Source: Thermodesulfobacteriota bacterium
GTDB lineage: Bacteria; Desulfobacterota_D; UBA1144; Nemesobacterales; Nemesobacteraceae
Direction: 5' to 3'
DNA: 64,000 nt
Assembly (NCBI GenBank): GCA_963667625.1
Contig: OY763921.1
Coordinates: 325,778-389,777, forward strand
The position numbers were made by a program, and so were the translations under genes. Below are positions 8,188 through 45,368 of this stretch, one piece after another. Within the stretch, counting starts at the first letter, position 1; every line of letters starts with the position of its first letter. Under the pieces are notes generated by a model. It saw only the letters and a program-made list of their open reading frames with translations. It did no database searches and was not told where the DNA came from.

Positions 8188-8319
8188 TGCCGCTTTGCCC
8201 CGGGTTGCAGATGTAATTTTGCTTGACATTGAATACGCACCTGTGATAGAAGCATAATTAGCGGTCCCTGTCTTGGGACCGGGAACGGTTATGATCTCAT
8301 ACAGGAGGTATGGTTAGTT

Positions 8320-8844
8320 ATGGTTCCAATAGAAGCTTTGTTAGGTTACGTTTTGCTGCTCGTAGGGTTCGTGTTCTTCGCGAACGGAATGACCCTTTTG
8401 GGTAAAACCGGAGCAAAAGAAGTGGGAGTGCTCAATCTCGGAGTCGGCGTTCTTATAGCGATTGCCGCTTGGAAGCTGCACACCCTTGGTCTTACGGCGG
8501 CTACCGCGCTTGTGTCGGTATTTGCATTGATATACCTGATAGTCTACGCGGTATTCGTACATGGACATGACGCGAAAGGGCTTGGAGTATACTGTCTTTT
8601 CGCAACGGTAGTGTTCATATGGTACGGAGCTCACTTCCAGGCACTTGGGCTTGCGGAGTTTGCGTACTTCTGCTGGGCTTGGGCTTTGCTTGTGCTTCTT
8701 TGCTTCTTGGCGTTTTCGCAGGGCAAGGATCTCGGTAAGCCGATAGCCTATCTGTTCATAATAGAGTCCATTGTGACTCTGTTGATACCGGGAATGCTTC
8801 TGCTTACAGAAAAGTGGAATCCTCTCGGAGGAGTACCAGGCTAA
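8320..8844 (+). CDS. AmiS/UreI-family channel (proton-gated urea / short-chain amide transporter family)
   Basis: 174 aa, about six predicted TM helices. The N-terminus LGYVLLLVGFVFFANGMTLLGKTG...LNLGVGVLIAI aligns, from memory, with H. pylori UreI LGLVLLYVGIVLISNGICGLTK...MNFFVGGLSII. The C-terminus IIESIVTLLIP resembles UreI IIEGILTAWIP. AGGAGG RBS at 8303-8308. Confidence 0.7.
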   Translation: MVPIEALLGYVLLLVGFVFFANGMTLLGKTGAKEVGVLNLGVGVLIAIAAWKLHTLGLTAATALVSVFALIYLIVYAVFVHGHDAKGLGVYCLFATVVFIWYGAHFQALGLAEFAYFCWAWALLVLLCFLAFSQGKDLGKPIAYLFIIESIVTLLIPGMLLLTEKWNPLGGVPG

Positions 8845-9073
8845 GGTTGGCTTTGCCTTGCTTCCCTGAAACAGTCCGGCTTTTTAAGTGTCGGAGCAAA
8901 CGGGAAGCACGAGATGTTTAAGAGTCTGTTTTGTTTCGGCTAGGCAGTCCGAAACTTAACGAAAGTTTGCGAGGAGACTTCGGTTTCAAATGGTTTTTGA
9001 TGCGGTGGTCACCGAGCAAATAATTCCTAGCCCTTGAGGCGAGGAAGTGCCGGTTTACAGGTGGTTAGAAAAA

Positions 9074-9188: not shown

Positions 9189-9641
9189 TTACGCTTCTTC
9201 TTTTCTCTGGACGAGAATTACCCACTTTCCCTTCTGGACGGGTTTTTCAGCGTCTTTGTGGGTAAATACATTTACCTCAAAGATAAAAAATCCCATGTTC
9301 GGACGCTTGTGTTCCCTTTTCTCAACGAGCTTTCTCGTTATGTGAATCGTATCACCTGGGAATACCGCTCCCGAGAATCTCCAGTCTTCAAGCCCCATGA
9401 AAGCGACGGTAGCGAGTCTCGGCATGGTGAACCAGAGGCCCGTTGCTATGGATGTGACCAGCATGCCGTGGGCTACCCTTGTCTTGAAAACGGTTTTCTT
9501 GGCAAACTCCTCGTCTATGTGCATATTGTTGTAATCTGCGGAAAGTCCCGCGAAGTTGACGATGTCGGCTTCAGTAATCGTCCTTCCTGAGCTTTTGTGC
9601 TCGTCTCCCTCGTTCAGATCTTCGTAAAAAAGTTTTGGCAT
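9189..9641 (-). CDS. MaoC-like (R)-specific enoyl-CoA hydratase / hot-dog fold dehydratase
   Basis: 150 aa; DYNNMHIDEEFAKKTVFKTRVAHGMLV is a typical MaoC dehydratase motif. Confidence 0.8.
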   Translation of the reverse strand: MPKLFYEDLNEGDEHKSSGRTITEADIVNFAGLSADYNNMHIDEEFAKKTVFKTRVAHGMLVTSIATGLWFTMPRLATVAFMGLEDWRFSGAVFPGDTIHITRKLVEKREHKRPNMGFFIFEVNVFTHKDAEKPVQKGKWVILVQRKEEA

Positions 9642-9656: not shown

Positions 9657-10082
9657 TTAACCCGCTGGTTTGAATTTGGGCAGTGTGACCTCATCGGTAA
9701 CGTCATCGAAGCAGACCTGCACTTCCATCCCTATGGACACTTCATTCGGATCCACGTCAACCACGTTGGACATCATCTTAACTCCTTCATCCATCTCGAT
9801 AAGGGCCACGACATAAGGAGGCTCACCCTTGTAGGCTTTCGAGGGTCCCATGTGGTGTATGGAAAAAGTCCACACCTTCCCCCGTCCCTCGCTCTCAACC
9901 CACTCTATGTCGTCACTCATGTCCCCTCCCGGGGAAAGAGCCCTCGGGTAAAAGAAAAACTCCCCTGTCTCCCTTGATCTGGGGATAACCAGCTTGTGCT
10001 CCTTCGCGGCATCCCAAAACGGCTTTGTCTCGGGCCTGAATTCAGGCAAAGGCTTGTTGTACGCTTTTTTCTCTTCTGACAT
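9657..10082 (-). CDS. DUF35 OB-fold / Zn-ribbon protein (thiolase partner subunit)
   Basis: 141 aa. N-terminal Zn-ribbon-like region plus OB-fold segment GRGKVWTFSIHH; it lies immediately downstream of the SCP-x-type thiolase, as in BbsA/ChsH-type pairs. Confidence 0.7.
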   Translation of the reverse strand: MSEEKKAYNKPLPEFRPETKPFWDAAKEHKLVIPRSRETGEFFFYPRALSPGGDMSDDIEWVESEGRGKVWTFSIHHMGPSKAYKGEPPYVVALIEMDEGVKMMSNVVDVDPNEVSIGMEVQVCFDDVTDEVTLPKFKPAG

Positions 10083-10109: not shown

Positions 10110-11321
10110 TTAATTAATCGGCTGGCTGCCAAGAACCACTGTGCTGTGAGCCGACACTATCCCGCCGTTTCCATGCACAACCGCAACCTCGGGATTCTCA
10201 ACCTGCCTTGCCCCCGCGTCTCCCCTCAACTGCAACGTGGCTTCCACCACATGATGCATGGCCCCCAGGTGAGCCTGGGAGAGCAGTCCCCCGTGGGTGT
10301 TCACAGGAAGGTCCTTCCCAATCTCCATCCTTCCCTCAAGAGCAAACGCTCCTCCCTCTCCCTTGGGGACAAAACCCAGTCCCTCAAGTTCAAGCAGCAC
10401 TGTTATGGTGAAGCAGTCGTAAAGAAACGCTATGTCAACATCCCTGGGCTCTATCCCAGCTGTGCTGAAAGCTTTCTGCCCCGACCGCTCAACAGCGTTG
10501 TATATCTGGTCAAGGTTCTCAAGAGTGGTTAAGTACTGGTGGGAGTATCCCTGTCCCATTCCCCAAAGATACGCAAGATCGTTTTCTATCCCAAGCTCCT
10601 TGGCCTTGTCCTCCGTGGTCACTATGAAAGCGGCTCCGCCGTCTGAGATAATGGAGCAGTCATACTTGGTAAGAGGCTCGGCTATAACCCTTGAGCTGAG
10701 AACGTCCTCTACGGAGAGGGGGTCCTTGTTCATGGCGTTTTCCTTGTCGGCGGCATGCTTTCTCATTGTCACTGCCACAGCTGCAAGGTGTTCTCTTCGG
10801 GCACCCCAGTCATGGAGGTATCTCTGCGCCGCGAGGGCGTAACCCCCAGGGGTGGTAAGTCCGTATGGGAATTCAAACTCCGCGTGGCACATTTCCCTTA
10901 TAAGCGCGAGCATGCCTGAAGACGAAATCCCCGAGAGGGTGTTGTCCCCCCTTACGCAGAGTACCACTTCAGCCTGTCCCGACGCTATGGCCATGGCGGC
11001 TTCGGCGACCATCCACACGGCCGTTGCCCCGCCCACTGCAACCGAGGAGAAAAACCTCGGGTTCATGCCGAAGTAATCGGCAAAGGTTGTGCAGTGCATG
11101 AACGTGTGCTCCACTAGGGAGAAGGCCGTTACGAGGCCGTCCACGTCATCTTTTTTAATTCCCGCGTCCTCAATCGCAAGCTTTGAAGCTTCGCTCAGGA
11201 AGTGAAAGGAGCTTTTATCCGGGATTTTACCCTGTTCCGTCTCGCCCACTCCGGCGATAACCACTTTTTTCTTCTTAAGAAGTTCTCGGGTCTCTTGTAT
11301 GCCCGGAAGATTATCTGACAT
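10110..11321 (-). CDS. Thiolase-like protein (SCP-x / nonspecific lipid-transfer protein-type thiolase)
   Basis: 403 aa, thiolase fold length. N-terminus KVVIAGVGETEQGK; paired with a DUF35 gene. Confidence 0.75.
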   Translation of the reverse strand: MSDNLPGIQETRELLKKKKVVIAGVGETEQGKIPDKSSFHFLSEASKLAIEDAGIKKDDVDGLVTAFSLVEHTFMHCTTFADYFGMNPRFFSSVAVGGATAVWMVAEAAMAIASGQAEVVLCVRGDNTLSGISSSGMLALIREMCHAEFEFPYGLTTPGGYALAAQRYLHDWGARREHLAAVAVTMRKHAADKENAMNKDPLSVEDVLSSRVIAEPLTKYDCSIISDGGAAFIVTTEDKAKELGIENDLAYLWGMGQGYSHQYLTTLENLDQIYNAVERSGQKAFSTAGIEPRDVDIAFLYDCFTITVLLELEGLGFVPKGEGGAFALEGRMEIGKDLPVNTHGGLLSQAHLGAMHHVVEATLQLRGDAGARQVENPEVAVVHGNGGIVSAHSTVVLGSQPIN

Positions 11322-11406: not shown

Positions 11407-12639
11407 CTAAATTCCAAGTTCGCGCGAAATAACGATACGCTGTATCTCCGAAGTGCCTTCGGTTATGGAAGCTAGCCTTGCGTCGCGGTAGTATCTCTCC
11501 GCATTGTACTCGACGCTGTAACCGTAGCCCCCGAGTACCTGTAGGGCTTCGGTGGCTACCGATTGTACCACCTCGGCCGAGTAAAGCTTGGCCATGGAAG
11601 CTTCCTTAAGACATTTTTTCCCGTTGCTGTAGAGCCAGGCGGCCTTATATACCATGAGTCTTGCAGTTTCTATCTTGACCGCCATGTCGGCAAGCTTGAA
11701 GCTTATGGCCTGGAACTTGGATATGGGCCTTCCGAACGCCTCTCTTTCCTTTGAATACTGAAGGGCGTACTCGAAGGCGGCCTGGGCTATTCCGACGCTT
11801 TTTGCGGAATGGGTTATGCGTGCTCCGAGCAAGGTTTGCATCGCTCCCGCGAATCCCCCTTCTCCCACGAGCAGGCTTTCCTCGGGAACTTCGCAGCCCT
11901 CGAATATAAGTTCCGAGGTGTCCGCGGAGCGGTGCCCGAGCTTATGCATCTTTCCGCTGACGGAAAATCCCGGGGTGCCCTTGTCCACTATGAATATGCT
12001 TATTCCGTGACCTTTTTTCGTCTTGTCGGTGTAGGCGGCTACCACCGCGTAATCGCACATCGTGCCGTTTGTTATCCAGGTTTTCGTGCCGTTAAGCACA
12101 TAGTGGTCTCCCTTTTTTTCCGCCTGGGTTCTTATGCTTCGCGCGTCGGAGCCGGCGTTGGGTTCGGTGATTCCCAGAGAGCCTATTTTCTTGCCCTCGA
12201 TCCCGGGGATGAGATATTTTTGCTTCTGTTCCTCGGAACCGAATTTGTATATGGGGAACATGGACAGACTCGTGTGAGCGTTAACGCACATCGCTATGCC
12301 GGCGTTAACCTTTCCCATCTCCTCGGAGAATATGCAGTCCATTATCTTGTCCTGAGCGACCCCTCCGTATTCTTCCGGAAAGGAGATTCCGAGCAGTCCG
12401 ATTTCCCCGAGCATGGGAAACAGTTGCTTGGGGAAGGTCTGGGTGGCTTCCGCTTCTTCAACCAGCGGTTCTATCTCGTTCTGGGCGAAATCCACTATCA
12501 TTTCCCGGAACATGTGCTGTTCGTCGGTGAATTCGAAATCAATAGGCAATTTGGCGTCCTCCCTGTGCCAATCCTCATTATAGCGAGAAAGTTTTTCGGG
12601 AAGGCAGTATAGCCGTTTTAGCGTGCTCTGGCAAAGCAA
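11407..12639 (-). CDS. Acyl-CoA dehydrogenase
   Basis: ACAD motifs GITEPNAGSDARSIRTQAEKKGDHYVLNGTKTWITNG and C-terminal ITEGTSEIQRIVISRELGI. The N-terminal IDFEFTDEQHMFREMIVDFA matches the usual ACAD start, so the true start may lie internal to the ORF as drawn. Confidence 0.85.
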   Translation of the reverse strand: MLCQSTLKRLYCLPEKLSRYNEDWHREDAKLPIDFEFTDEQHMFREMIVDFAQNEIEPLVEEAEATQTFPKQLFPMLGEIGLLGISFPEEYGGVAQDKIMDCIFSEEMGKVNAGIAMCVNAHTSLSMFPIYKFGSEEQKQKYLIPGIEGKKIGSLGITEPNAGSDARSIRTQAEKKGDHYVLNGTKTWITNGTMCDYAVVAAYTDKTKKGHGISIFIVDKGTPGFSVSGKMHKLGHRSADTSELIFEGCEVPEESLLVGEGGFAGAMQTLLGARITHSAKSVGIAQAAFEYALQYSKEREAFGRPISKFQAISFKLADMAVKIETARLMVYKAAWLYSNGKKCLKEASMAKLYSAEVVQSVATEALQVLGGYGYSVEYNAERYYRDARLASITEGTSEIQRIVISRELGI

Positions 12640-12925
12640 CTTTGCAATTACTCTAAAAACTTTATTGACATCCCTGCTAAATAGAGAGTACTATAAGAAA
12701 TGTTCCACCTTCCGGTTGCCGCCGTGGCTGTTTTTTCCCTAACGGGATTAAGTGGCTTCGGCGGCTTTTTTTTTACCCGATTCGGTATAAGCCGTAATTG
12801 CGTTTCGGATGAAAAATTCCCCGTTTTCTTCACACCGAAATCAGCATTTTCAGGGGGTTGAGCGGGCAGATATTCTTCAGCACCTCAGAACCCGGAAACT
12901 TTGCTTTAGGTATAGAAAAAAGTAC

Positions 12926-12955
12926 TTGACAAAGGGGTTGGGAGTTTGATTAAAT
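12926..12955 (+). promoter_or_regulatory. Candidate sigma70-type promoter for the ADC-like gene pair
   Basis: TTGACA at 12926-12931, a 17-nt spacer, then ATTAAA/TTAAAT at 12949-12955; a second TTGACA lies at about 13010. Confidence 0.3.
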
Positions 12956-13094
12956 GTAAATCGGGTGAGGTTGCGTCTATTCGCATCCAACAGAACTGCC
13001 GACATTTTATTGACAGGGGCAAAGGGGATGTTGGAGAGGTATGGAATGGGTGGTTAGTTTTGGCCCAAATCTACAGTTTAAGGAGGCTTATAAT

Positions 13095-14075
13095 ATGAGC
13101 CATAGTCATTTAAACGTCCCAACGAAGTACTGGGAGTTGACGAAAGAGGTCCCGCCCCCTCCGATAGAGCGGGATATCAAGTCATGGATCATAGCGAATC
13201 CGTCGGATCCGCTGTGGGACATAGACGTGCTGCCGCTGACATACACGGACAGCAGGTGGTCAGCATTTGTAGTAAGGTGCGACGAGGCAACTCGGAGCCG
13301 TCTGTGCCCGAATCCCCCGTTGCAGGTATGGGATGGCGAAAATGCAGACCTAGTAGAGTTTTGGTATGTGGATCATAAGCACACCATGTTAGGTCCATAC
13401 CTTGAGTTTGGTGTAACAGTGTCGGCGTCATACACGGACCCGGACGGGAACGTGTGGAGAGCAGGATACTATCCGTATATGTATCTTACGGGAGATGCGC
13501 CAGTGGACGCAGGTCGTGTGCTTGGATTTCCAAAGAAGATGTCCTACATCAGATGTACGGTACATGGTGGAGAGAAGGGAACAGACTTCTTTGGATTTGC
13601 GATGAGTCGTAATGGTTACCTGATGCATAGCGCAACGGGTCAGTTTGACGACAAGCAGGTAACACCTCCGTACTTCTATGGGAAGACGGACTGGGGTAAG
13701 TTCAACATGAAGGTAATAACGCGTCCGGACGTATCGAGTTCGGAGTGGCAGCTCACATATCTGCCATCGGCGTTGCCGCCTCCGTTTGACAGCATGATTC
13801 AGGGACACAGGTTCAAGATAAAGCCGGAGCATACCAGGACGGCTAGCGGAGACGCTATCAACTGGTTTATGCAGGCCACTCCGTTTGACAACATGGGAGC
13901 GGAAGTAAAGATCCAGGAAGTAACTGGATTGATTTCGTTTGTGTTCGATCTTGTAATACCGCCAGCGGTAGTACTATGGACGGAGACATACGAGAGGCCG
14001 GCAAGTTATCGTGGATATGCCACACCATACAAGTATGGATTGAGGCAGCAGTTCCCGATCAGTCAGGGTTCATAA
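13095..14075 (+). CDS. Acetoacetate decarboxylase (ADC)-superfamily protein, paralog 1
   Basis: Start moved to ATG 13095 (MSHSHLNV) behind AGGAGG at 13081-13086. The motif YYPYMYLTGDAPVDAGRVLGFPKK matches, from memory, the ADC active-site region YLHMMYLDNEPAIAVGRELSAYPKK, including the Lys-Lys dyad. The N-terminal AFVVRCDEATRSRLCPNPPL resembles ADC DMDALRKVVPEPLEI. Confidence 0.65.
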   Translation: MSHSHLNVPTKYWELTKEVPPPPIERDIKSWIIANPSDPLWDIDVLPLTYTDSRWSAFVVRCDEATRSRLCPNPPLQVWDGENADLVEFWYVDHKHTMLGPYLEFGVTVSASYTDPDGNVWRAGYYPYMYLTGDAPVDAGRVLGFPKKMSYIRCTVHGGEKGTDFFGFAMSRNGYLMHSATGQFDDKQVTPPYFYGKTDWGKFNMKVITRPDVSSSEWQLTYLPSALPPPFDSMIQGHRFKIKPEHTRTASGDAINWFMQATPFDNMGAEVKIQEVTGLISFVFDLVIPPAVVLWTETYERPASYRGYATPYKYGLRQQFPISQGS

Positions 14076-14107
14076 TATAGAGATAAAGTTAAGGAGGTAA
14101 AACCATA

Positions 14108-15079
14108 ATGGGATTACATGCAAATGAGTACAGTTATCCTTGGCTGGATGAGGGAGAAGTTCCACCATTACCATTGGACAGGGACAGGATCCACATAATC
14201 AGTCAGGGCGTAGCGGACCCAGTGTTCGACTACGACATCATACCGCTTACGTACACAGAGAGCAGGTGGATGGCCTATGTGATAAGGGCAGACATCAGCG
14301 CAATGAAAGCGGTAGTTCCGGAACCTATAGAGGTTCAGGATGATGTAATAGAGTTTTGGTACGTAATACACAAGAACACGATGTTAGGTCCATACATGGA
14401 GATGGGCGTAACGTTCTCGGCGACAGTGGATGACGGGAGTGGGCACATATACAAAGCGGGATACTATCCGTATATGTATCTGTCGAACGACTCACCGATA
14501 TTTGCAGGTAAGGAGCCATTCGGATTTCCGAAGAAAGCTGCTTACATAGCCGGGTATGAGCACGGTACCAACAACAACTATTTCAACCACTTGATGGAGC
14601 GCAGGGGTTATATACTGCACACGGCGAACGGGCGTTATTCTGACAGGCCGCTTTCAGCCAGGCCGACTTTCTACGGGAAGACGGACTGGGGAAGGATGAA
14701 CTACAGGATAACAACGAGGCCGGATGTATCGAACAGCATCCATGAAGTAACGTATCTGCCGTCGGATCTGCCGCCGGGATTTGGAACGGGACACAGGTTC
14801 CAGCTGAATCCGGAGAGCGTGAGGACAGCTGTTACGGAGGATGTACGTTCGTGGTACATGTCAGGGACGCCATTTGACTACATGGGTGGTCAGATACCAG
14901 CGGCGGAGGTAGTAGGGTTGATAAGCTTCACGTTTAACCTGATCATACCGCCGGCGCAGACGATATGGACAAGGACGGTAGAGAGGGCCACAGAAGATAT
15001 GGGCCATATAGTATACTCCACACCGTTTGAGTACACGATGCGTCACAGGTTCCTGCTGCCGCAGTATAGCCAGGGATAA
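14108..15079 (+). CDS. Acetoacetate decarboxylase (ADC)-superfamily protein, paralog 2
   Basis: Strong RBS TAAGGAGGTAAAACCATAATG. Clearly paralogous to the upstream gene: EFWYV.HK.TMLGPY, AGYYPYMYL, GFPKK, FYGKTDWG, TTRPDVS and GLISF.F.L.IPPA are all shared; KK dyad conserved. Confidence 0.65.
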   Translation: MGLHANEYSYPWLDEGEVPPLPLDRDRIHIISQGVADPVFDYDIIPLTYTESRWMAYVIRADISAMKAVVPEPIEVQDDVIEFWYVIHKNTMLGPYMEMGVTFSATVDDGSGHIYKAGYYPYMYLSNDSPIFAGKEPFGFPKKAAYIAGYEHGTNNNYFNHLMERRGYILHTANGRYSDRPLSARPTFYGKTDWGRMNYRITTRPDVSNSIHEVTYLPSDLPPGFGTGHRFQLNPESVRTAVTEDVRSWYMSGTPFDYMGGQIPAAEVVGLISFTFNLIIPPAQTIWTRTVERATEDMGHIVYSTPFEYTMRHRFLLPQYSQG

Positions 15080-15130
15080 TGGCGAAGAGCTGGTGTCGGA
15101 AGACACTGAGTTCTTGATGAGTAAGATGAA

Positions 15131-15172
15131 GAGGAGGGAAGCCGGTAACGGTTGTCCCTCCTCTTTTTTTTG
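15131..15172. terminator. Rho-independent terminator
   Basis: GAGGAGGGA ... TCCCTCCTC 9-bp stem followed by TTTTTTTT; lies between the convergent ADC-like paralog 2 and the DUF1015 gene. Confidence 0.6.
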
Positions 15173-15177
15173 CCTGC

Positions 15178-26824: not shown

Positions 26825-28009
26825 TTGACTAACGGTGAGGAAATGCCGCCTGACTCCATAAGTTCCATATATCTTGACTATAACGCGACCACGCCCCTTG
26901 ACCCGCGCGTTCTGGAAGAGATGACTTCCTATTTCGCCGAGAACTACGGGAACCCTTCCAGCATTCATTCTCCCGGAAGCGTCGCGCGTGCGGCGGTTGA
27001 TTCCGCCCGGGAAAGAGTATCGGATTATCTCGGAGCGAGGCCGGGAGAGATAGTTTTTACTTCCGGGGGCAGCGAAAGCAACAATTTCGCCATAAAAGGC
27101 CTTGCCTACGCCCTCTCCGACAGAGGAAACCACTTGGTTACGACCGCAGTCGAGCACGCATCGTGTCTTGAGACGTTCAGGTTTTTTGAGCGCAGCGGTT
27201 TCGAGGTCACTTACCTTCCGGTAGATTCCTTCGGTCTGGTTTCCCCCGAGCAGTTCCGAGAAGCGATTACCGAGCGCACGATTCTTGTCTCCTGTATGTA
27301 CGTGAATAACGAGACCGGGGTTATAAGCCCGATTCGCAACATAGGAGAAATTGCCCGCGAGAGAGGAGTGGTTTTCCATACAGATGCGGTCCAGGCCCTG
27401 GGGAAAATGGAAATCAACCTTGCTGATCTGCCGGTGGATATGGCGTCTTTTTCCTCTCACAAGATTTGCGGTCCCAAGGGGGCGGGCGCTCTTTACGTAA
27501 GAAAAGGAATCGGCCTTGAGCCTTTTGTGCACGGCGGGGGGCAGGAGAGGGGAAAGAGATCGGGAACGGAGAACGTGGCGGCCGTCTGCGGATTCGGTTA
27601 CGCGTGCGAGCTTCTCTGTGCGGAGCTTGAGACGGAAAACGAAAGACTGGGGAAGCTGCGCGACCGTCTTTTCGAAGAGCTTTCCCGGAGGGTAGGGGAT
27701 GTTTACCTGAACGGACATCCCGACGCGAGAGTCTCAAATACCCTTAACGTTGGCTTTCCCGGCACTCCGGGCGACTCCGTGGTGATGAATCTCGATACCG
27801 CAGGCGTAGCGGTTTCAACTGGTTCCGCCTGCTCCGAGGGAAACGTCGATCCTTCCCACGTGTTGATTGCTATGGGACTCAAAGAACAGGAAGCGCTTTG
27901 CTCGGTCAGGTTCAGCTTCGGTCGTTTTACCCGTTCGGAAGAAATTGACAGAGTGATCGAGCTTCTTCCCGCCATAGTGGAGAGAATAAGGACGCTTCAG
28001 GATTTCTGA
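26825..28009 (+). CDS. Cysteine desulfurase (NifS/IscS-like), second paralog
   Basis: SFSSHKICGPKGAGALYVRKG PLP-Lys motif and N-terminus IYLDYNATTPLDP. Confidence 0.85.
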   Translation: MTNGEEMPPDSISSIYLDYNATTPLDPRVLEEMTSYFAENYGNPSSIHSPGSVARAAVDSARERVSDYLGARPGEIVFTSGGSESNNFAIKGLAYALSDRGNHLVTTAVEHASCLETFRFFERSGFEVTYLPVDSFGLVSPEQFREAITERTILVSCMYVNNETGVISPIRNIGEIARERGVVFHTDAVQALGKMEINLADLPVDMASFSSHKICGPKGAGALYVRKGIGLEPFVHGGGQERGKRSGTENVAAVCGFGYACELLCAELETENERLGKLRDRLFEELSRRVGDVYLNGHPDARVSNTLNVGFPGTPGDSVVMNLDTAGVAVSTGSACSEGNVDPSHVLIAMGLKEQEALCSVRFSFGRFTRSEEIDRVIELLPAIVERIRTLQDF

Positions 28010-28173
28010 TGGGATGTCCGGGAACCGCTTGATGGCGAGTTAATCTGCGGAGAAATTTGGCAGAAAGCCAAATTCTGGACCAAAATTATGGTTGGTCGCT
28101 GTAAATTTCCTAAAACCTGCGGTAAAATGGAAGAAGAAGAAAGGACAGCAAGTCAGGAACCAGACCGACGGTT

Positions 28174-28545
28174 TTGTTCCCTGTAGATTTTCCGATGGAA
28201 AAAAACATCAACATATCCATATTTGAAGTTGTCGGGAGTTCCTTATGCGTCGCCTCGGATGATGGACATAAAGTGTACCATCGCCTTGTCGCCGCACTTG
28301 GCAAGAATCTGCATGTCTGCCTGTCTTTCCGCAACATTTCCACGCTCACATCGGCATTTCTCAATACGGCAATAGGCCAGTTGTACGGAGAGTTTGATGA
28401 AAAACGGATTCGGGAACTGCTGAAAGTGGAAGACATCGAACCTGATGACGTAGCGTTGCTCAAGCATGTTGTTGTCAATGCCAAGCAGTACTTTGAGGAT
28501 GAAGCGGCTTTCGGGAAAGCACTTCTGGAAACAACCGAAGATTGA
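28174..28545 (+). CDS. Stand-alone STAS-like protein (DUF4325-like; anti-sigma-antagonist fold)
   Basis: 123 aa from a TTG start (alternative ATG at 28195, MEKNINISIF). SIFEVVGSSLCVASDDGHKVYHRLV ... VCLSFRNISTLTSAFLNTAIGQLYG resembles STAS/DUF4325 (weak, from memory). Lower GC than the flanks. Its stop lies 4 nt before the next gene's ATG. Confidence 0.55.
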   Translation: MFPVDFPMEKNINISIFEVVGSSLCVASDDGHKVYHRLVAALGKNLHVCLSFRNISTLTSAFLNTAIGQLYGEFDEKRIRELLKVEDIEPDDVALLKHVVVNAKQYFEDEAAFGKALLETTED

Positions 28546-28549
28546 AGCA

Positions 28550-29113
28550 ATGAAGAGTCAGGCCGTCCATGTGAGAAACTACTCCTTCGGACCTCAGGAC
28601 AAGCTGTTTTTCGATGCCAATATCTGGATGTTTCTCTACGGCCCGCAGGGGCAAAACAATCTTCCTGGTAACAGGATGTCAGTTTATTCTTCCGCATTTA
28701 GCCGTATCCTTAAGGCGCAAAGCCGTATTTATATTGATGTTCTTATAGTTTCGGAATTTATTAATACCTACGCGCGACGGAAATGGGAGATATTTAAGGC
28801 AACTGATCGTTCTGGCAGAGGCAGCGAAAGCTTCAAGAATTTTCGCAACAGTTCTGATTTCAACCCCGTTGCCAAGGAAATCGCCGACAAGACTAGGCGG
28901 ATTCTGAAACATTGTCGCAAGATTGAAAGTGGCTTTGAAATATTGGAGATGGACAGCTTGATTAAAAGGTATGAAAACGGAGGCACGGATTTCAACGACC
29001 AGGTTTTCATGCAACTGTGCAAAAATAGAGAATTCAAACTTGTAACGGATGACCGTGATTTCAAAAATCAGGGAATATCCATACTGACGGCCAATGGTCG
29101 TTTGCTGAGATAG
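28550..29113 (+). CDS. PIN-like nuclease-domain protein
   Basis: 188 aa from ATG 28550, translationally coupled to the upstream gene. Acidic residues sit at PIN-like positions: LFFDANIWMFLY (strand 1 Asp), IYIDVLIVSEF, TDFNDQVF, and C-terminal LVTDDRDF. Confidence 0.5.
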   Translation: MKSQAVHVRNYSFGPQDKLFFDANIWMFLYGPQGQNNLPGNRMSVYSSAFSRILKAQSRIYIDVLIVSEFINTYARRKWEIFKATDRSGRGSESFKNFRNSSDFNPVAKEIADKTRRILKHCRKIESGFEILEMDSLIKRYENGGTDFNDQVFMQLCKNREFKLVTDDRDFKNQGISILTANGRLLR

Positions 29114-29240
29114 CCTTCGTGTCATCAAATGCTGAATTTAATGAATCGCAATTGCCACAGGCGTCGAGACTCCGGGGGACGGGTTCCATCAGGACTGCCG
29201 ACGTTTTTAACGGCATTATAACGGTTTTGGAGGTATCGGC

Positions 29241-30113
29241 ATGAAATTCTATCTGCCGGAAATCAGGAATGACTTTGAAGGCTTTGCGGCCCTGACCCAA
29301 CTCTATTCTCAGACCAGGAATTGTCTTTTTGAGAATATCGAAATCGACATGCGGGCAACAAGCTGGTTCGATGCCGACATGTGTTCGGTATTCGGGGCGA
29401 TTCTCTATAGCTTGAGGAGCAACCTGAATAATGTCACCTTGACCAACATAACCCCAGGCGTGAAACAAATTCTATCGAAAAACAGTTTTCTTGTTCATTA
29501 CGGACAGGCGTTGAATATTGCTGACCACTGGGGAACAACCATTTTCTACAAACGGTTCAATATCGGCGAAAGGCGCTATTTTTCTGATTATATAGATAAT
29601 GAATTCATTAATCGTGAAGAGATACCGCAGATGTCCCACGCTCTTCTTAAAAAATTCAGGGAGAGCCTTTTCGAGATATTCGACAATTCCATGATCCATT
29701 CTAGAACGGAATTGGGGGTTTTCAGCTGCGGACAATTTTTTCCTAATCGAAACAGACTTGACTTTATTGTTGTCGATTTGGGCGTCGGCATTCGAAAAAA
29801 AGTATGCGACCATCTGGAGTTTGATATTTCGCCGGAACAAGCCATTGAATGGGCCACTCAGGAAACAAACACAACCAAGAGAGGTACTCCCGGCGGGCTA
29901 GGATTAAAACTCCTTTCCAACTTCATTGACTTAAACAGCGGTCGCATACAGATCGTTTCTGACGCGGGATACTGGTGTCGAAAGAATCGGAACACCATTA
30001 CTAGACGGCTGGACCACCCGCTTCCCGGTACCGCGGTAAGCCTAGAGATAAACACCGCAGATACCAATTCCTACCGACTTTCCCACGAAACTAGTCTCGA
30101 CGATATTTTCTAA
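29241..30113 (+). CDS. STAS-like N-domain fused to GHKL (histidine-kinase/anti-sigma-factor-like) ATPase
   Basis: RBS GGAGG at 29229-29233. C-terminal HATPase_c boxes: N-box EIFDNSMIHS, G1 DLGVGI, G2 GTPGGLGLKLLSNF. The N-terminal ~140 aa (IDMRATSWFDADMCSVFGAILYSL ... VTLTNITPGVKQILSKNSFL) has a STAS/SpoIIAA-like pattern. Confidence 0.6.
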   Translation: MKFYLPEIRNDFEGFAALTQLYSQTRNCLFENIEIDMRATSWFDADMCSVFGAILYSLRSNLNNVTLTNITPGVKQILSKNSFLVHYGQALNIADHWGTTIFYKRFNIGERRYFSDYIDNEFINREEIPQMSHALLKKFRESLFEIFDNSMIHSRTELGVFSCGQFFPNRNRLDFIVVDLGVGIRKKVCDHLEFDISPEQAIEWATQETNTTKRGTPGGLGLKLLSNFIDLNSGRIQIVSDAGYWCRKNRNTITRRLDHPLPGTAVSLEINTADTNSYRLSHETSLDDIF

Positions 30114-30402
30114 ACAATTTAGCCGTTGCCTTATTATGCATGCTGCTGAACCAACAGGGTTTTTCGTAAACTTTCGCGCTGTTTCCAAGATCAATTTTCT
30201 AGACTTCACAGGCGTTTGAAGGAAGCGGATGCCAGCTTAACTGATTAACTCAAAAGCCCGATAATTTAATCCCTGCGCTTATATTACAAAATTGATTATT
30301 TTACAATAAGGCGGTTGTTACTTTAACCAAGAACAATGGGAATAAGATAGATTTTCACATACCCTATCTTGTAACGCCCGGTTTCTTGGCGTTCCATATA
30401 TA

Positions 30403-30639
30403 GTGGTTACACTGCTACATATGAAAGGATTTATTTGGGAATTGCTGCTCATTGTTGTACTTGCAGTAATTCCCATGTCTAATGGCTTAAGATTAACATT
30501 GGATTTACTAGGTAATGTTGTGCTTCATAGTACAGAAGCAGAAACACAGGTAGTTTCGGAAACAACAGAGAAACCAATCCCAACTTATTCACTATCCCCA
30601 GACGACTACATAGATTCCCATTCCAAAACAATTAACCTT
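30403..30639 (+). pseudogene. 5' fragment of a small AT-rich ORF interrupted by IS30 insertion (N-terminal TM helix)
   Basis: The ORF runs into the IS left inverted repeat. After excising 30640-31719 and one CTT copy, the frame continues into 31723-31851, giving a reconstructed ORF of about 120 aa. Confidence 0.5.
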
Positions 30640-31719
30640 CGTGCTTTCAAGTTTGAAACGCAACTTTTGATGTAAATTAAAAGGGCAAGTTGCGATAATC
30701 TTCGCAACCCTCTTTTAACGACCAAATCAAAAGGAGCGTTTGAATGAGAAAACCAAAGCAACTTACCCTGGAACAAAGATACCAGATTTACATCCTGCGC
30801 AAAGCAGGGCACAACCAGACCCAGACCGCAAGGCACCTGGGCGTGCACAAATCCACCATAAGCAGGGAACTTCACCGCAACCGCGGCAAACGGGGTTACC
30901 GTCCCAAGCAGGCTCAGAGGCTTGCGGAGGGCAGGCGCAATTGTTGTGGAAACCGTATCCCCCAACAAACCTGGATTCGCGTGGAGCTGCTGCTCGGAGA
31001 AGACTGGAGTCCCCAGCAGATAAGCTGCTGGCTTGCCCGAAACGAAGGACTCAGCGTAAGCCACCAGAGCATCTACAATCACGTAAGGGAAGACAAGATT
31101 AATGGAGGAGATCTCCACACGCACCTTCGCTGCCGCAAGAAGCGCAGAAAGCGCTACGGAGCGCCCTCGCGCAGGGGACATATAAAAAACCGTGTCTGTA
31201 TAGACCAGCGCCCCGAAGTGGTGGATAAGCGTGTGCGCTTAGGAGACTGGGAAGCCGACACTGTGCTTGGCTCAAGAAAAAAAGGCAAGGTGCTCGTAAC
31301 CCTCGCCGAGCGCAAGTCCCGCTATTGCATGATTCTGGTCTCTGAGGACAAAAAAGCTTCCTCCGTCTCCCGGGCCATACTCGAGGCGGCGACACCCATG
31401 CGCAAGCGCTTCGAGACTGTGACGTGCGATAACGGAAAGGAGTTCGCGTTGCATGAGGAACTATCAAGCGAGCTCTCGGCGCGGTGGTACTTCGCCCATC
31501 CTTACCACTCGTGGGAGCGGGGGTCCTGTGAAAACGCAAACGGACTTATAAGGCAGTACTTCCCAAAGGGAATGGACTTCGGGAAACTGACGCAGGAAGA
31601 TGTAGACAGAGTTATGGACAAATTGAACAACAGACCGAGGCAATGCCTTGGCTTCAAAACCCCGAATCAGGTACTCTTCGGTGCTGATCCACCTGTTGCG
31701 TTTCAAACTTGAAAGCACG
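30640..31719 (+). mobile_element. IS30-family insertion sequence (1080 bp) with perfect 25-bp terminal inverted repeats and 3-bp CTT target-site duplication
   Basis: IRL CGTGCTTTCAAGTTTGAAACGCAAC at 30640-30664 and IRR GTTGCGTTTCAAACTTGAAAGCACG at 31695-31719 are exact reverse complements. CTT flanks both ends (30637-30639 and 31720-31722). A single transposase ORF lies inside, and the IRR overlaps its stop. Confidence 0.85.
30744..31712 (+). CDS. IS30-family DDE transposase
   Basis: 322 aa with an N-terminal HTH (LTLEQRYQIYILRKAGHNQTQTARHLGVHKSTISRELHRNRG) and DDE core (DWEADTV, CDNGKEF, then a third acidic residue) typical of IS30-family transposases. AAGGAG RBS upstream. Confidence 0.85.
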   Translation: MRKPKQLTLEQRYQIYILRKAGHNQTQTARHLGVHKSTISRELHRNRGKRGYRPKQAQRLAEGRRNCCGNRIPQQTWIRVELLLGEDWSPQQISCWLARNEGLSVSHQSIYNHVREDKINGGDLHTHLRCRKKRRKRYGAPSRRGHIKNRVCIDQRPEVVDKRVRLGDWEADTVLGSRKKGKVLVTLAERKSRYCMILVSEDKKASSVSRAILEAATPMRKRFETVTCDNGKEFALHEELSSELSARWYFAHPYHSWERGSCENANGLIRQYFPKGMDFGKLTQEDVDRVMDKLNNRPRQCLGFKTPNQVLFGADPPVAFQT

Positions 31720-31851
31720 CTTAATAGAGAACTGCTGGATATCGAGTTTGATGAAATGCTTAGACTATATGAACCATACGCTAAAAGAGAACGTGAGGCT
31801 TTTCTCAGAATAGCGGTATTTCCCGATAACATAACTCCCTACAATTATTAG
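31720..31851 (+). pseudogene. 3' fragment of the IS30-interrupted small ORF
   Basis: In-frame continuation (NRELLDIEFDEMLRLYEPYAKREREAFLRIAVFPDNITPYNY*) of the 30403-30639 fragment once the IS is removed. Confidence 0.45.
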
Positions 31852-43897: not shown

Positions 43898-44346
43898 TAG
43901 TAGCTGTCAAGCGCAAGACCCATGACATAGGCGTCTCCTTTTCCCCTGCCGTAGTAGTTCTCGCGTGTTCTAAGGATTTCAAACCCGAGCTTTTTGTAAA
44001 GCGTAATTGCCGGGGTGTTTGTCGTTCTTACCTCGAGAATAACCGAAAGAGCCCCCATTTTTTCATAAAAATTAAATGTGTCCGAGAGCAGTTCAATCGC
44101 TACTCCCCTTCTCCTGTGGCAGGATGCCACGGCGATCTTGAATACGTGAATTTCGTCGTAGATAATGGTGGATATCGAGTAGCCAGCAACGTCTTCGTCG
44201 CTTCCGTTTATAGCTATATTGCAGAAGAACCCGGTTTTTTTGATGTAATCTGCGAGCACCTGTTTCGGCCACGGGGAGATGAAGGACTCGTTTTCGATCT
44301 TCACGATCTCGTTTATGTATTTCGGTGATAGGGCCTTTATGATCAT
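43873..44346 (-). CDS. rimI: GNAT acetyltransferase, RimI-like
   Basis: 157 aa; acetyl-CoA binding segment HRRRGVAIELL...LEVRTTNTPAITLYKKLGF. Confidence 0.7.
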   Translation of the reverse strand: MIIKALSPKYINEIVKIENESFISPWPKQVLADYIKKTGFFCNIAINGSDEDVAGYSISTIIYDEIHVFKIAVASCHRRRGVAIELLSDTFNFYEKMGALSVILEVRTTNTPAITLYKKLGFEILRTRENYYGRGKGDAYVMGLALDSYYQKFLSAT

Positions 44347-45368
44347 TTTTCTTGTGCCGACCGAGGGGGACGAAATCTCTCAAAATAAAGATCGAGCAGA
44401 TTCGCGGCTCCCGTGTAGGGATCCGTCTTTCCTTCCATTACTTCTTTTTCCACTTTGACGAGCGTTTCTTTGACGAGGGAGTTTTCATAGAAGCTGTCCT
44501 CAAGATTCTGGACGAGCGCTTCATGCAGGCGATATTTAGCCTGCTTCCTTCTTTTTTCCGTAAAGTATCCGTTTTCTCTGCAGAGATCTTCATAGTCCAT
44601 GACGCACTGCCAGATTTCCCTTATCCCGAAACCCGTGACAGATGAGCAGGCATAAGCCTTGGGAACCCACCCGGATTCGGGCGGCCTGTGAAATCTCAGC
44701 GCCTCTTCCATTTCCTGTTTCATAAGCTCCGCCTTTTTTTTGTTTCTCCCATCCGCTTTGGTTATCAATACGGCGTCAGCGCGCTCGATTATTCCCCTTT
44801 TTATTCCCTGAATGTCATCTCCCGCCCCGGTAATCATGAGCAGCATGAAAAAATCGACCATGGAGTGGCAGGTAATTTCGGACTGCCCGACTCCCACCGT
44901 TTCTATAAAGATCGTGTCGAATCCTGCCGCCTCGCAGAGAATCACGGCGTCGCTTGTCTTTTTTGCGACTCCTCCCAGAGAACCGGCCGACGGAGAAGGC
45001 CTTATGTAGACGTTTTCGTGCCGGGAAAGTTCCTGCATTCTGAGTTTGTCGCCCAAAACGCTTCCCCCGGTTTCGCTGCTCGTGGGATCGATTGCGAGCA
45101 CCGCTATCTTTTTTCCGCACTCGCGGGCTAGATAGAGACCCAGAGATTCTAAGAAGCTGCTCTTCCCGACTCCGGGTATCCCCGTAATTCCCACCCTTAT
45201 GGATTTTCCAGACCGCGGCAGACACCACGTGATTATCTCCCGTGCAAGCTTTTTGTGCTCGGGAAGGGTGCTCTCCGCAAGGGTTATTGCCCTGCTCAGA
45301 GCGGGTATTTCTCCTTTGGCTATGCCTTGGCGGTAAGTTTCCGCTTCCGTTTTTCTGTGCGGGGTCAT
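44343..45368 (-). CDS. meaB: Methylmalonyl-CoA mutase-associated GTPase MeaB (ArgK)
   Basis: P-loop [18 protein letters not shown]; directly downstream of, and overlapping, the mutase genes. Confidence 0.85.

Follow-up and report, generated by a model that had tools for sequence, protein, structure and literature searches.

Two adjacent genes in the window (the whole stretch of 64,000 nucleotides that was analysed) resemble acetoacetate decarboxylase (ADC) and lie beside an operon for acyl-CoA metabolism. What kind of enzyme do they encode, why are there two of them, and what links them to their neighbours? We think that the pair is a real and probably new variant of ADC-like enzyme. Our best overall explanation, a cassette for a two-subunit ADC-like Schiff-base enzyme tied to an acyl-CoA module, has in our opinion about an even chance of being right.

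The gene pair and its family

The initial annotation described two adjacent paralogous open reading frames of about 325 residues, and both are present:

13095..14075, + strand: ORF1, putative A-type subunit, 326 aa, Lys147/Lys148 at nt 13533-13538, PF06314
14108..15079, + strand: ORF2, putative B-type subunit, 323 aa, Lys142/Lys143 at nt 14531-14536, PF06314

Their identity of 47% over 328 columns (E 7e-106) is far beyond chance. All the motifs quoted as shared can be found, with the qualification that TTRPDVS is exact in ORF2 only, ORF1 having ITRPDVS. Strong ribosome-binding sites are present too, as AAGGAGG at 13080-13086 for ORF1 and at 14091-14097 for ORF2, and the genes are separated by 32 nt. 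Mechanical listing of reading frames and gene callers both begin ORF1 at ATG 13041 (344 aa); however, ATG 13095 is the better start, since orthologues begin with MPSHLNV and the AAGGAGG lies 8 nt 5' of this codon.

Both proteins match the Pfam profile PF06314 (64.0 bits for ORF1 and 76.4 for ORF2, gathering score 29.8), over profile positions ~19-181 of 238 only. An AF2 model of ORF2 (pLDDT 83.7) was compared with the PDB by Foldseek: matches 1-24 are all ADC-superfamily members and the next one has E 0.02. The best match is 3bgt (E 2.6e-16, target-normalised TM 0.79, ~245 columns), and the model thus predicts a full ADC fold for ORF2, to which ORF1 is linked through its 47% identity. We regard membership of the pair in the ADC superfamily, by family and by fold, as virtually certain.

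The active site can be followed residue by residue. In a proper alignment the GFPKK of both ORFs pairs with the AYPKK (K115/K116) of the Clostridium acetobutylicum enzyme (CaADC, 3bh2), so that the Lys-Lys dyad proposed earlier holds, and it is kept in both genes and in 92/92 aligned homologues. In ORF2 numbering, K142, K143, E98 and E82 are invariant in the 92 homologues of both types, and R53 is nearly so (at least 90%). Arg29, Glu61 and Glu76 of CaADC are active-site residues according to structural work on that enzyme. Glu76 pairs with the invariant E98, and its equivalent is kept in both proteins; in the sequence alignment Arg29 pairs with Ser52, the conserved Arg53 being 1 residue off, and Glu61 pairs with Trp84, the conserved Glu82 lying 2 residues earlier.

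Judged by their sequences, ORF1 and ORF2 are not canonical acetoacetate decarboxylases: they reach 24.6 and 55.4 bits against NCBIfam NF002614 (true ADC, EC 4.1.1.4), below the cut-off of 150. True ADCs are nevertheless the nearest solved relatives in a profile-to-PDB search, with E 1.5e-15 for CaADC versus 0.025 for Sbi00515. Among 1.84 billion cluster representatives just 26 were found at E <= 1e-30; the canonical ADCs (240-260 aa) come next, at E 1e-15 to 1e-8 and covering profile positions ~45-175 only. These searches place the pair in a small, separate clade of ~325-aa proteins within the superfamily.

A cassette kept in two copies

The pair belongs to a larger repeat unit, whose parts are as follows:

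12887..15176, + strand: repeat unit, a complete bicistronic cassette of 2,290 bp (promoter, 5'UTR, ORF1, ORF2, terminator)
12926..12955, + strand: putative cassette promoter (A-tract, TTGACA, 18 nt, TGaTTAAAT)
12963..13094, + strand: inferred 5'UTR of ~135 nt, with conserved blocks in alignment A3 and the AAGGAGG at 13080-13086
15121..15173, + strand: intrinsic terminator, a GC-rich hairpin followed by a U8 run

Across 16 species two promoter segments, AAAAAAGTACTTGACAA and TTTGATTAAAT, hardly vary or do not vary at all, whereas the surrounding intergenic DNA does. A consensus promoter scan missed this promoter because its -10 rule demands A at position 2. At 12969-12989 the 5'UTR has a small conserved stem (GGTTGCG..CGCATCC), and locus L041 of alignment A3 shows one compensating change. 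We considered a riboswitch or leader RNA ahead of ORF1 and rejected it: the 5'UTR has no Rfam match at E <= 1, and shuffled versions fold overall just as well (z -0.32). The terminator, which falls within the repeat unit, folds with an MFE of -34.1 kcal/mol (z -7.15), and 0/200 shuffles fold as well.

A second copy of the cassette lies ~124 kb away on the same 1.817-Mb contig (locus L001) and is 99.69% identical to that in the window over 2,290 bp (blastn). The cassette is present in 80/80 related loci retrieved. In the 18 species where it occurs twice, the copies within one genome are 98.3-100% identical, whereas those of different species share 73.8-97% (median 85.3%, i.e. ~15% different); each of the 36 copies is closest to its partner in the same genome. 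The flanks of the two positions, ACAD|DUF1015 and orf126|DUF8083, are orthologous in at least 14 species. Identity within genomes that exceeds identity between species, inside orthologous flanks, indicates that gene conversion keeps both copies uniform, and we hold concerted evolution of the two-copy cassette to be very probable. An assembly artefact is an unlikely source of the two copies, which are resolved on many long contigs and in chromosome-level records.

The DNA upstream of the pair had been described as one leader of about 450 bp. The gap is actually ~545 bp long, counted from the likely start of the acyl-CoA dehydrogenase (ACAD) gene at TTG 12549, and is not a single leader. It contains, in order, the ACAD promoter, a small-RNA-like unit, a variable spacer, the cassette promoter and the 5'UTR. 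This likely ACAD start follows GGGAGGA, and in the 410-aa reading frame NCBIfam alignments set in only at residue 33; the promoter-like TTGCCA-17-TATACT at 12634-12606 is conserved in alignment A3. The small-RNA-like unit is independent of the cassette:

12665..12781, + strand: sRNA-like unit, outside the repeat, between the ACAD gene and the cassette

It has a promoter (TTGACA-18-TACTAT, 12665-12694), an invariant 23-nt 5' segment (12703-12725) and then a terminator hairpin with a U9 run, and it folds with an MFE of -31.6 (z -3.76). The exact 23-mer occurs in 32 loci, distant lineages included, and compensatory changes are seen at three stem pairs. Rfam gave nothing at gathering score in the whole window, the best weak match of this unit being suhB/mmgR (18.9 bits, gathering score 41). 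Its seed has 14 near-complementary sites in the window versus 7.8 expected, none of them at a ribosome-binding site of the module. It is a strongly conserved, unannotated candidate for a small RNA at this locus.

Neighbouring genes

The operon next to the pair is, as had been noted, an ACAD-thiolase-DUF35-MaoC operon, and it is transcribed divergently. In Dadabacteria an AmiS/UreI channel gene is part of this operon:

11407..12549, - strand: acyl-CoA dehydrogenase, first gene of the divergent operon (Pfam Acyl-CoA_dh_N/M/1)
10110..11321, - strand: SCP-x/lipid-transfer-type thiolase (Thiolase_C_1 and Thiolase_N; best NCBIfam NF004811, below cut-off)
9657..10082, - strand: DUF35 protein, ChsH2-type OB fold and zinc ribbon (PF01796, 85 bits; PF12172 at 22.7 bits, just below the gathering score of 23.2)
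9189..9641, - strand: MaoC-type (R)-specific enoyl-CoA hydratase (PF01575, 101.9 bits)
8320..8844, + strand: AmiS/UreI-family channel (PF02293, 96 bits), inside a 632-bp repeat at 8215-8845

The other copy of this AmiS repeat, inverted and 93.8% identical, adjoins the other copy of the cassette, and an AmiS gene lies less than 10 kb from the pair in 44/61 Dadabacteria loci at least 15 kb long. Within Dadabacteria, ACAD-thiolase-DUF35-MaoC-AmiS stands beside the pair in three distinct arrangements.

The association recurs in other phyla. Thiolase and DUF35 genes adjoin the pair in 5/6 non-Dadabacteria loci looked up individually, namely Desulfofundulus luciae and four others, and 4 of these 5 carry ACAD/ETF too; the minimal cluster, L094, consists of thiolase-DUF35-A-B. 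Where B occurs alone it adjoins an Icm/Hcm-type acyl-CoA mutase, another enzyme of short branched acyl-CoA metabolism. In a large soil/sediment group a TRAP transporter is the pair's sole companion and thiolase is missing; these are high-GC metagenome loci where ORF calling is noisy and the TRAP genes alone could be called as conserved. We consider a functional link between the pair and the thiolase/DUF35 module to be likely.

Some further neighbours may be recorded here. Sigma-54 activators with a MimR_N domain occur in two of the clusters, and a sirtuin is found beside the pair both in deep Dadabacteria and in one Firmicute, the two being 44% identical to each other. The distal radical-SAM and SIR2 genes of the window were considered as relocated cluster members, which was unsupported (E 53 and 29% identity).

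Origin, subunits and chemistry

The codon usage of the pair is atypical, as the initial annotation had it: the scaled chi-square deviation is 0.52 and 0.50, versus a median of 0.149 over 49 ORFs, and no other window ORF of 300 aa or more deviates as much. Both genes prefer GTA, ACG and CCG, and ORF1 alone prefers GGA as well. The accompanying claim that the neighbours are richer in GC3 did not stand, the pair having GC3 of 0.57 and 0.61 versus a window mean of 0.586, and a GC3 difference behind the anomaly is rejected: C3 (0.20/0.23 vs 0.305 +/- 0.041) is swapped for G3 (0.385 vs 0.282 +/- 0.047) with GC3 unchanged. No ribosomal-protein or EF-Tu gene, with which a codon bias of high expression could be compared, lies within the window or the fetched loci. 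Could the pair then be a foreign or mobile cassette acquired recently, its odd codons and second copy both stemming from a recent insertion? Besides the deviation itself, the sharp boundaries and the two copies, a similar bias is found in one ORF only, the gene of an IS481-like transposase (deviation-vector r 0.58). The lateral acquisition that had been suggested is, however, not supported as a recent event: the same two loci have orthologous flanks in at least 14 species, and the pair is present throughout Dadabacteria at 79-99% protein identity. Identity then drops from 79-81% to <=57% for the nearest homologues, which have other context types and are non-Dadabacteria where named. The cassette edges carry no integrase, transposase or terminal repeats, the flanking genes being metabolic; mobile-element boundaries were rejected, since positions 12887 and 15176 show neither inverted nor direct repeats. 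Other phyla lack the codon anomaly, and the lineages L066 and L074 show it weakly or not at all, so that it looks lineage-specific rather than like the signature of a donor. Recent transfer of the pair is unlikely, an ancient one possible, and the complete scenario of a freshly inserted mobile cassette seems to us very improbable.

The question of why there are two genes leads to the other phyla. Two indels are common to all A genes and missing from all B genes (9 loci, several phyla). The A-type signatures GR-VLGFPKK and I-NWF appear also in A genes of other phyla, and B genes have the motifs G[KR]EPFGFPKK and IRxW; since the indels are shared across phyla, the A/B split is ancient. Neither this split nor the two-copy repeat apparently kept uniform by gene conversion had been noticed in the initial annotation. 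Wherever both genes are complete (Dadabacteria, a Firmicute, Desulfobacteria-type and soil-metagenome loci), A precedes B, except in L160, where the genes are divergent, and the A-B gaps are 16-107 nt in seven loci with called genes. This order, held across phyla, makes a two-subunit enzyme likely. A and B might instead be separate isozymes, each a homo-oligomer with its own substrate, whose genes just happen to remain side by side: to our knowledge, all solved ADC-superfamily members are homo-oligomers, both paralogues retain every invariant catalytic residue, and four loci (L082, L084-L086) carry B without A within 10 kb, which weakens the case for an obligatory heteromer. Against such isozymes stand the strict adjacency with short gaps and conserved subunit-specific indels, and the fact that one operon has kept both genes for so long, as is typical of heteromers. 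We find separate isozymes unlikely and lean, with some reserve, towards a hetero-oligomeric enzyme of A and B.

For its chemistry, lysine-iminium catalysis is textbook knowledge in the ADC superfamily. The A/B enzyme would apply it to a small carbonyl compound, and the likeliest reaction would be the conversion of an acetoacetate-like beta-keto acid into a methyl ketone and CO2, or a close mechanistic relative. It may end or feed a short- or branched-chain acyl-CoA module (ACAD, MaoC and an SCPx-type thiolase with DUF35), to which the AmiS/UreI small-molecule channel would belong in Dadabacteria, with the two cassette copies giving high dosage. This beta-keto-acid or ketone chemistry, suggested by genomic context only, is a tentative proposal to which we give somewhat less than an even chance. 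Against our overall explanation stand the NCBIfam scores below cut-off, the offsets at Arg29 and Glu61, the soil/sediment group without thiolase, and the missing partner genes: the ORFs scanned in the window and in related clusters include no CoA-transferase, and no CoA-transferase or thioesterase for freeing a beta-keto acid was seen beside the pair. Our literature search found no paper connecting ADC-like proteins with DUF35/thiolase or with Dadabacteria.

Another possibility is an aldolase-dehydratase or hydratase-aldolase of the MppR/Sbi00515 type, whose Schiff base would be with pyruvate or another 2-oxo acid and which would form or cleave a C-C bond to an aldehyde instead of decarboxylating a beta-keto acid. 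Sbi00515, MppR and Swit_4259 match the ORF2 model structurally (E ~1e-12 to 1e-13), the A-type GR-VLGFPKK shares a one-residue deletion with the GW-VQGFPKK of Sbi00515, and ADC Arg29 and Glu61 are not exactly aligned. Among the neighbours, an aminotransferase in Firmicute clusters, TRAP (carboxylate) transporters in many metagenome loci and an aldehyde dehydrogenase 6 kb upstream in the window would fit such a role. Nevertheless, true ADCs are clearly closest by profile and by TM-score, the aminotransferase is limited to one context type, and neighbours such as thiolase/DUF35/ACAD suggest work on acyl-CoA and not on 2-oxo acids, so we judge this type of enzyme improbable, although the more distant relation would be compatible with a similar chemistry. 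More speculative still is that the A/B enzyme runs ADC chemistry uphill, in the condensing direction, as an ATP-independent activation of ketones. Acetone has the shape of urea and acetamide, and textbook free energies give only ~ +5 kJ/mol for acetone + HCO3- + CoA -> acetyl-CoA + acetate. A small ketone such as acetone would come in through the AmiS/UreI channel and be bound by the active-site lysine as an enamine, to be carboxylated or acylated there; thiolysis by the partner thiolase-DUF35 complex would draw the reaction forward, and the cluster-specific sirtuin could restore the hyper-reactive catalytic lysine when it has been acylated by accident. The MimR_N activators, AmiS in an acyl-CoA operon, the Hcm/Icm-like mutase beside the B-only genes and the sirtuin are no more than hints in this direction. 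Published proteomes of acetone-degrading sulfate reducers, including Desulfotomaculum, contain thiolases and DUF35 and no ADC-like protein, which counts against our overall explanation and against ketone activation; the latter we take to be very improbable. Decarboxylation of a beta-keto acid, or a relative of it, remains our preferred reading.

Significance and comparison with known systems

What is new here is a 2.29-kb promoter-to-terminator cassette that occurs twice per genome, with copies 100-150 kb apart, and would be a clean natural example of gene conversion. Because small Dadabacteria genomes keep two identical copies from promoter to terminator, the activity may well be important and is probably highly expressed; many of these small-genome Dadabacteria are apparently host-associated. 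The clade, small and sharply separated, is encoded by two ancient paralogues, and in three or more bacterial lineages it recurs beside acyl-CoA enzymes of the thiolase/DUF35 type. We know of few ADC-superfamily members with known function, all of them single-gene products, and thus we think that this clade is a tractable place to look for new Schiff-base reactions of short keto acids or ketones.

True ADCs (3bh2, 3bgt from Chromobacterium violaceum, 3c8w from Legionella) have the same fold as the ORF2 model over the whole ADC chain, with target-normalised TM of 0.73-0.79, and the equivalents of Lys115, Lys116 and Glu76 are invariant in the pair's clade. In comparison with a true ADC (~245 aa), the proteins of the pair are ~80 residues longer, owing to an N-terminal arm of ~45 aa, a C-terminal tail (arm and tail both of low pLDDT) and inserts, and their C-terminal half has no detectable sequence similarity. 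There are also two paralogous genes (323-326 aa) instead of one, and no ctfAB-type CoA-transferase is nearby. Sbi00515 (4zbo, 6eej), MppR (4jm3 etc.) and Swit_4259 (5upb) share the fold and the GFPKK Schiff-base motif, with target-normalised TM of 0.65-0.69 versus the 0.73-0.79 of true ADCs. Their sequence relation is far weaker (E 0.025-0.09 vs 1e-15), MppR not being found by sequence. They are single-gene enzymes outside any thiolase/DUF35/ACAD context, and MppR belongs to the enduracididine secondary-metabolite pathway, according to PDB entry names.

The neighbouring operon, and not the pair, resembles the ChsE/ChsH1-ChsH2(DUF35)/Ltp2 module of steroid side-chain degradation, with which it shares an ACAD, a MaoC protein, a DUF35 protein, an SCPx/Ltp-type thiolase and the absence of a hydroxyacyl-CoA dehydrogenase. 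A set of enzymes like this suits the cleavage of a beta-branched acyl-CoA by a retro-aldol step that sets a ketone free. The operon differs from that module in that DUF35 stands alone as a small protein; further genes for steroid degradation were not seen in the window, and NCBIfam matches are all below cut-off. The Firmicute and Desulfobacteria-type clusters recall the archaeal-type thiolase/HMG-CoA synthase/DUF35 complex, in having a thiolase, DUF35 and a 328-aa HMG-CoA-synthase-like protein (110 bits, cut-off 244); tblastn for the latter was negative in 80/80 Dadabacteria loci, the neighbourhood in the window included. A difference from that complex is that these clusters carry ACAD/ETF too, which points to a catabolic role.

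The gene pair and its family

The tandem pair of ADC-like paralogs described in the initial annotation has been confirmed, and the interpretation given there is right at its core. The present analysis adds to it a cross-phylum link of the pair to thiolase and DUF35 genes, a two-copy cassette apparently kept uniform by gene conversion, and a conserved sRNA-like neighbour. The mechanical ORF list gives the two genes as:

13041-14075, + strand: ORF1 (A-type gene), 344 aa
14108-15079, + strand: ORF2 (B-type gene), 323 aa

For ORF1, the 326-aa form starting at ATG 13095, which had been proposed from the sequence, is preferred to the gene callers' start at 13041, because the orthologues begin with MPSHLNV... 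and this ATG lies 8 nt beyond an AAGGAGG (13080-13086). The second gene has the same motif at 14091-14097; both ribosome-binding sites are strong. The motifs quoted originally are present, with ITRPDVS in place of TTRPDVS in ORF1. The two proteins align with each other over 328 columns at 47% identity (E 7e-106) and reach 64.0 and 76.4 bits with the expected PF06314 model (gathering score 29.8), the last third of which is left unmatched in both cases.

By a curated test the proteins are not bona fide acetoacetate decarboxylases, since both fail the NCBI ADC model (24.6 and 55.4 bits, cut-off 150). When 1.84 billion cluster representatives were searched exhaustively with an HMM, only 26 proteins reached E <= 1e-30, among them four or five full-length clusters. 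Canonical ADCs of 240-260 aa come next, at 1e-15 to 1e-8, and they cover only profile positions ~45-175. This gap marks the pair out as part of a small clade that stands well apart within the superfamily, and we think that it is best filed as a two-subunit, long-form clade.

When phmmer and a 92-sequence profile were run against solved structures, the three solved true ADCs ranked first; in the profile search they were CaADC (C. acetobutylicum, 3bh2; 1.5e-15), CvADC (Chromobacterium violaceum) and the Legionella enzyme, with Sbi00515 later, at 0.025. The AlphaFold2 model of ORF2 (pLDDT 83.7, pTM 0.78) aligns with a true ADC over that enzyme's full length (3bgt, E 2.6e-16, target-normalised TM 0.79, ~245 columns). 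PDB matches 1-24 to this model all belong to the ADC superfamily (ADCs, 3cmb, Sbi00515, MppR, Swit_4259), the next having E 0.02. Compared with true ADCs, the ~80 extra residues are predicted to make up inserts, an N-terminal arm and a C-terminal tail, the arm and the tail being modelled with low confidence.

The Lys-Lys dyad holds up in a proper alignment, where GFPKK falls on AYPKK. ADC K115/K116 are matched by K142/K143 in ORF2 and K147/K148 in ORF1, and Glu76 is matched by E98. All 92 aligned homologues keep K142, K143, E98 and E82, and at least 90% of them keep R53. ADC Arg29 and Glu61 fall on Ser52 and Trp84, with the conserved Arg53 and Glu82 off register by one and two residues, respectively.

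Gene neighbourhood across lineages

The adjoining operon on the - strand has the composition originally reported, that is, acyl-CoA dehydrogenase (ACAD), SCPx-type thiolase, DUF35 protein and MaoC hydratase, and a Pfam scan places an AmiS/UreI channel gene beyond these. The ACAD start is likely TTG 12549, which is preceded by GGGAGGA and gives a 380-aa protein with the best fit to family models. The mechanical ORF (11407-12639, - strand; 410 aa, from TTG 12639) overlaps the gene's own conserved promoter, and the gene callers' ATG 12513 (368 aa) truncates the Pfam N-domain.

Conservation of the neighbourhood was borne out, since the linkage of the pair to thiolase and DUF35 genes recurs across phyla. 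The smallest such cluster (L094) consists of thiolase, DUF35, A and B. In Desulfofundulus luciae and a related MAG the series runs ACAD, HMG-CoA-synthase-like protein, thiolase, DUF35, DctQ, ETF beta, ETF alpha, A, B, aminotransferase, DctP, radical SAM, acyl-CoA ligase and SIR2, and Desulfobacteria-type contigs additionally carry an ETF-linked membrane FeS oxidoreductase, two DUF2148 proteins and a sigma-54 activator with a MimR_N domain. In Dadabacteria the pair is adjoined by the ACAD-thiolase-DUF35-MaoC-AmiS operon, in three arrangements. Deep members of this group have a further thiolase (with or without DUF35 and nitroreductase) and a SIR2-family deacylase gene directly upstream of A, at three loci:

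L052, 7988-8761: SIR2-family deacylase
L079, 7960-8730: SIR2-family deacylase
L087, 14928-15677: SIR2-family deacylase

This deacylase shares 44% identity (E 3e-65) with the SIR2 protein of the Firmicute cluster and only 29% with the window's distal SIR2 protein (53858-54622), and may be a cluster-specific sirtuin. In a large and widespread soil and sediment group of metagenome loci (L097-L174) the pair adjoins only a divergent TRAP transporter (DctP and fused DctQM); thiolase and ACAD are absent from these flanks. In one locus with B only (L085, 8980-13543), B is flanked by a TetR regulator on one side and, following it, an Icm/Hcm-type acyl-CoA mutase with a large subunit of 557 aa and a B12 subunit of 136 aa. 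Judged from gene content, what these contexts have in common is the metabolism of short or branched acyl-CoAs and keto acids, with a dedicated transporter.

Elsewhere in the window there are an acetolactate-synthase-like ThDP enzyme, cut by the window start (18-1511), and MeaB with a two-subunit methylmalonyl-CoA-mutase-type enzyme (44343-49443). Acetone induces both enzyme classes in sulfate reducers (PMC8084838); the overlap is probably a coincidence involving housekeeping genes.

The two-copy cassette and the intergenic gap

A single 1.817-Mb contig carries the exact ORF2 sequence twice, with 124 kb between the copies, and the closest loci in a species-level genome scan belong to Candidatus Dadabacteria or Thermodesulfobacteriota MAGs and lie on contigs or chromosomes of 1.5-2.4 Mb. 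By blastn, the repeat spans 2,290 bp (12887-15176) at 99.69% identity. A 632-bp piece bearing AmiS/UreI (8215-8845) is also repeated, at 93.8% and inverted, next to the other cassette copy at locus L001. The relevant features are:

TTGACA at 12926-12931, + strand: predicted cassette promoter, with an A-tract, an 18-nt spacer and TGaTTAAAT (to 12955); invariant or nearly so in 16 species
15121-15173, within the repeat: strong intrinsic terminator, -34.1 kcal/mol, z -7.15
L001, 7319-7949: other copy of the AmiS/UreI repeat
L001, 8332-8712: flanking ORF of locus B (orf126), 126 aa, without Pfam match, 59-93% identical across species
L001, 11109-11858: flanking DUF8083 protein of locus B

Between promoter and ORF1 lies a predicted 5'UTR of ~135 nt that holds a small conserved stem; it has no Rfam match and folds no better than shuffles. 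From these signals the repeat reads as a complete transcription unit.

Two cassette copies are present in each of 18 species, with identities of 98.3-100% within genomes and 73.8-97% (median 85.3%) between species, and the nearest neighbour of every copy (36/36) is its partner in the same genome. The flanks are orthologous in at least 14 species, being ACAD and DUF1015 at locus A and orf126 and DUF8083 at locus B, so the duplication is old. We infer that gene conversion keeps both copies uniform. There is one AmiS copy per cassette copy, and the identity of only 93.5-99% within genomes indicates that this repeat is homogenised less than the cassette. Swapped flanks (ACAD/cassette/DUF8083 and orf126/cassette/DUF1015) were seen in one genome (L014/L016, contigs of 491 kb and 183.5 kb) and in a short-read contig (L005), and reflect either a reciprocal crossover between the repeats or an assembler jump through them.

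The long leader that had been proposed for the pair resolves into several units. The gap between the likely ACAD start (TTG 12549) and ORF1 measures 545 bp. Its first element is the ACAD promoter; an independent sRNA-like unit and a variable spacer come next, and after them the cassette promoter with its 5'UTR:

12634-12606, - strand: predicted ACAD promoter, TTGCCA-17-TATACT
12665-12781, + strand: sRNA-like unit, starting 30 bp from the ACAD promoter, with promoter TTGACA-18-TACTAT

The unit comprises an invariant 23-nt 5' segment, GTTCCACCTTCCGGTTGCCGCCG (12703-12725), which contains the anti-Shine-Dalgarno-like stretch CCACCUUCC, and, beyond it, a terminator hairpin with a U9 run. Without a single change the 23-mer recurs at 32 Dadabacteria loci, in each case close to the thiolase/ACAD/ADC gene set, even in lineages whose coding DNA is only ~75-85% identical. 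Compensatory changes occur in the upper stem, and the promoter hexamers are kept while the spacer between them varies. No Rfam family matches the unit, which looks like a candidate for an unannotated small RNA syntenic with the gene set.

Subunits, origin and possible function

Nine loci were compared, drawn from Dadabacteria, Desulfofundulus luciae and several metagenome lineages. In all of them the A gene carries the same two single-residue deletions (GR-VLGFPKK, I-NWF) and the B gene has G[KR]EPFGFPKK and IRxW, which shows the division into A and B to be ancient. In loci with two complete genes the order is always A then B, the divergent L160 being the sole exception. These type-specific indels and the kept order favour a hetero-oligomer. 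B occurs without A within 10 kb in four loci (L082, L084-L086), so the heteromer need not be obligatory, and two independent isozymes deserve some weight as the less probable arrangement.

The deviant codon usage noted initially stands as far as codon choice is concerned, with scaled chi-square values of 0.52 and 0.50 (median 0.149), the highest among the window's long ORFs; the GC3 is ordinary. The pair is low in C3 (0.20 and 0.23 vs 0.305 +/- 0.041) and high in G3 (0.385 vs 0.282 +/- 0.047). Both genes prefer GTA, ACG, CCG, AGG and GAG, with AAG strongest in ORF1, and avoid GCC, CCC, ACC, TCC, GTC and CTC. The two-copy AmiS gene is C3-poor as well. Lateral acquisition had been suspected from the codon bias, and the only similar deviation vector belongs to an IS481-like transposase gene (r 0.58). 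Conserved synteny and phylum-wide presence do not support recent transfer, which we consider very unlikely. The pair is also a frequent local codon outlier in other Dadabacteria (L043, L079, L083, L085, L086; not L066, L074), and not clearly one in the Firmicute and Desulfobacteria-type clusters. Either expression-linked selection or an effect of repeats or gene conversion could explain the bias.

Other parts of the window deviate too. A low-GC stretch at 28000-31800 (0.44-0.46 at 28-31 kb) contains an IS30-like transposase (30744-31712), a PIN-domain ORF and a Pfam-less ORF. The remaining outliers in codon usage are the HipA toxin gene (60828-62048) and an IS481-like HTH/transposase ORF (49615-50814, GC3 0.69). 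All of these regions probably represent islets of mobile or toxin-antitoxin type.

As to function, the fold and the invariant lysine suggest that a small carbonyl substrate would be bound by the A/B enzyme as a lysine imine. Since true ADCs are the nearest relatives, the most economical guess is that a beta-keto acid would be decarboxylated to a methyl ketone. An aldolase-dehydratase of the MppR/Sbi00515 kind, acting on 2-oxo acids, is rather unlikely; both proteins are among the structural matches, and Sbi00515 ranks behind the true ADCs in the profile search. For an ATP-independent, thiolase-pulled ketone carboxylation or condensation the hints are circumstantial. The acetone proteomes published for sulfate reducers contain thiolases and DUF35, but an ADC-like protein is not listed in them. 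They lend that reading no support, and in our opinion it is very improbable.

The neighbouring ACAD operon is without a hydroxyacyl-CoA dehydrogenase. By analogy with the ChsH/Ltp2 system, this composition would fit cleavage of a beta-branched acyl-CoA to a ketone and acetyl-CoA, and a small neutral carbonyl compound could then be carried by the AmiS/UreI channel.
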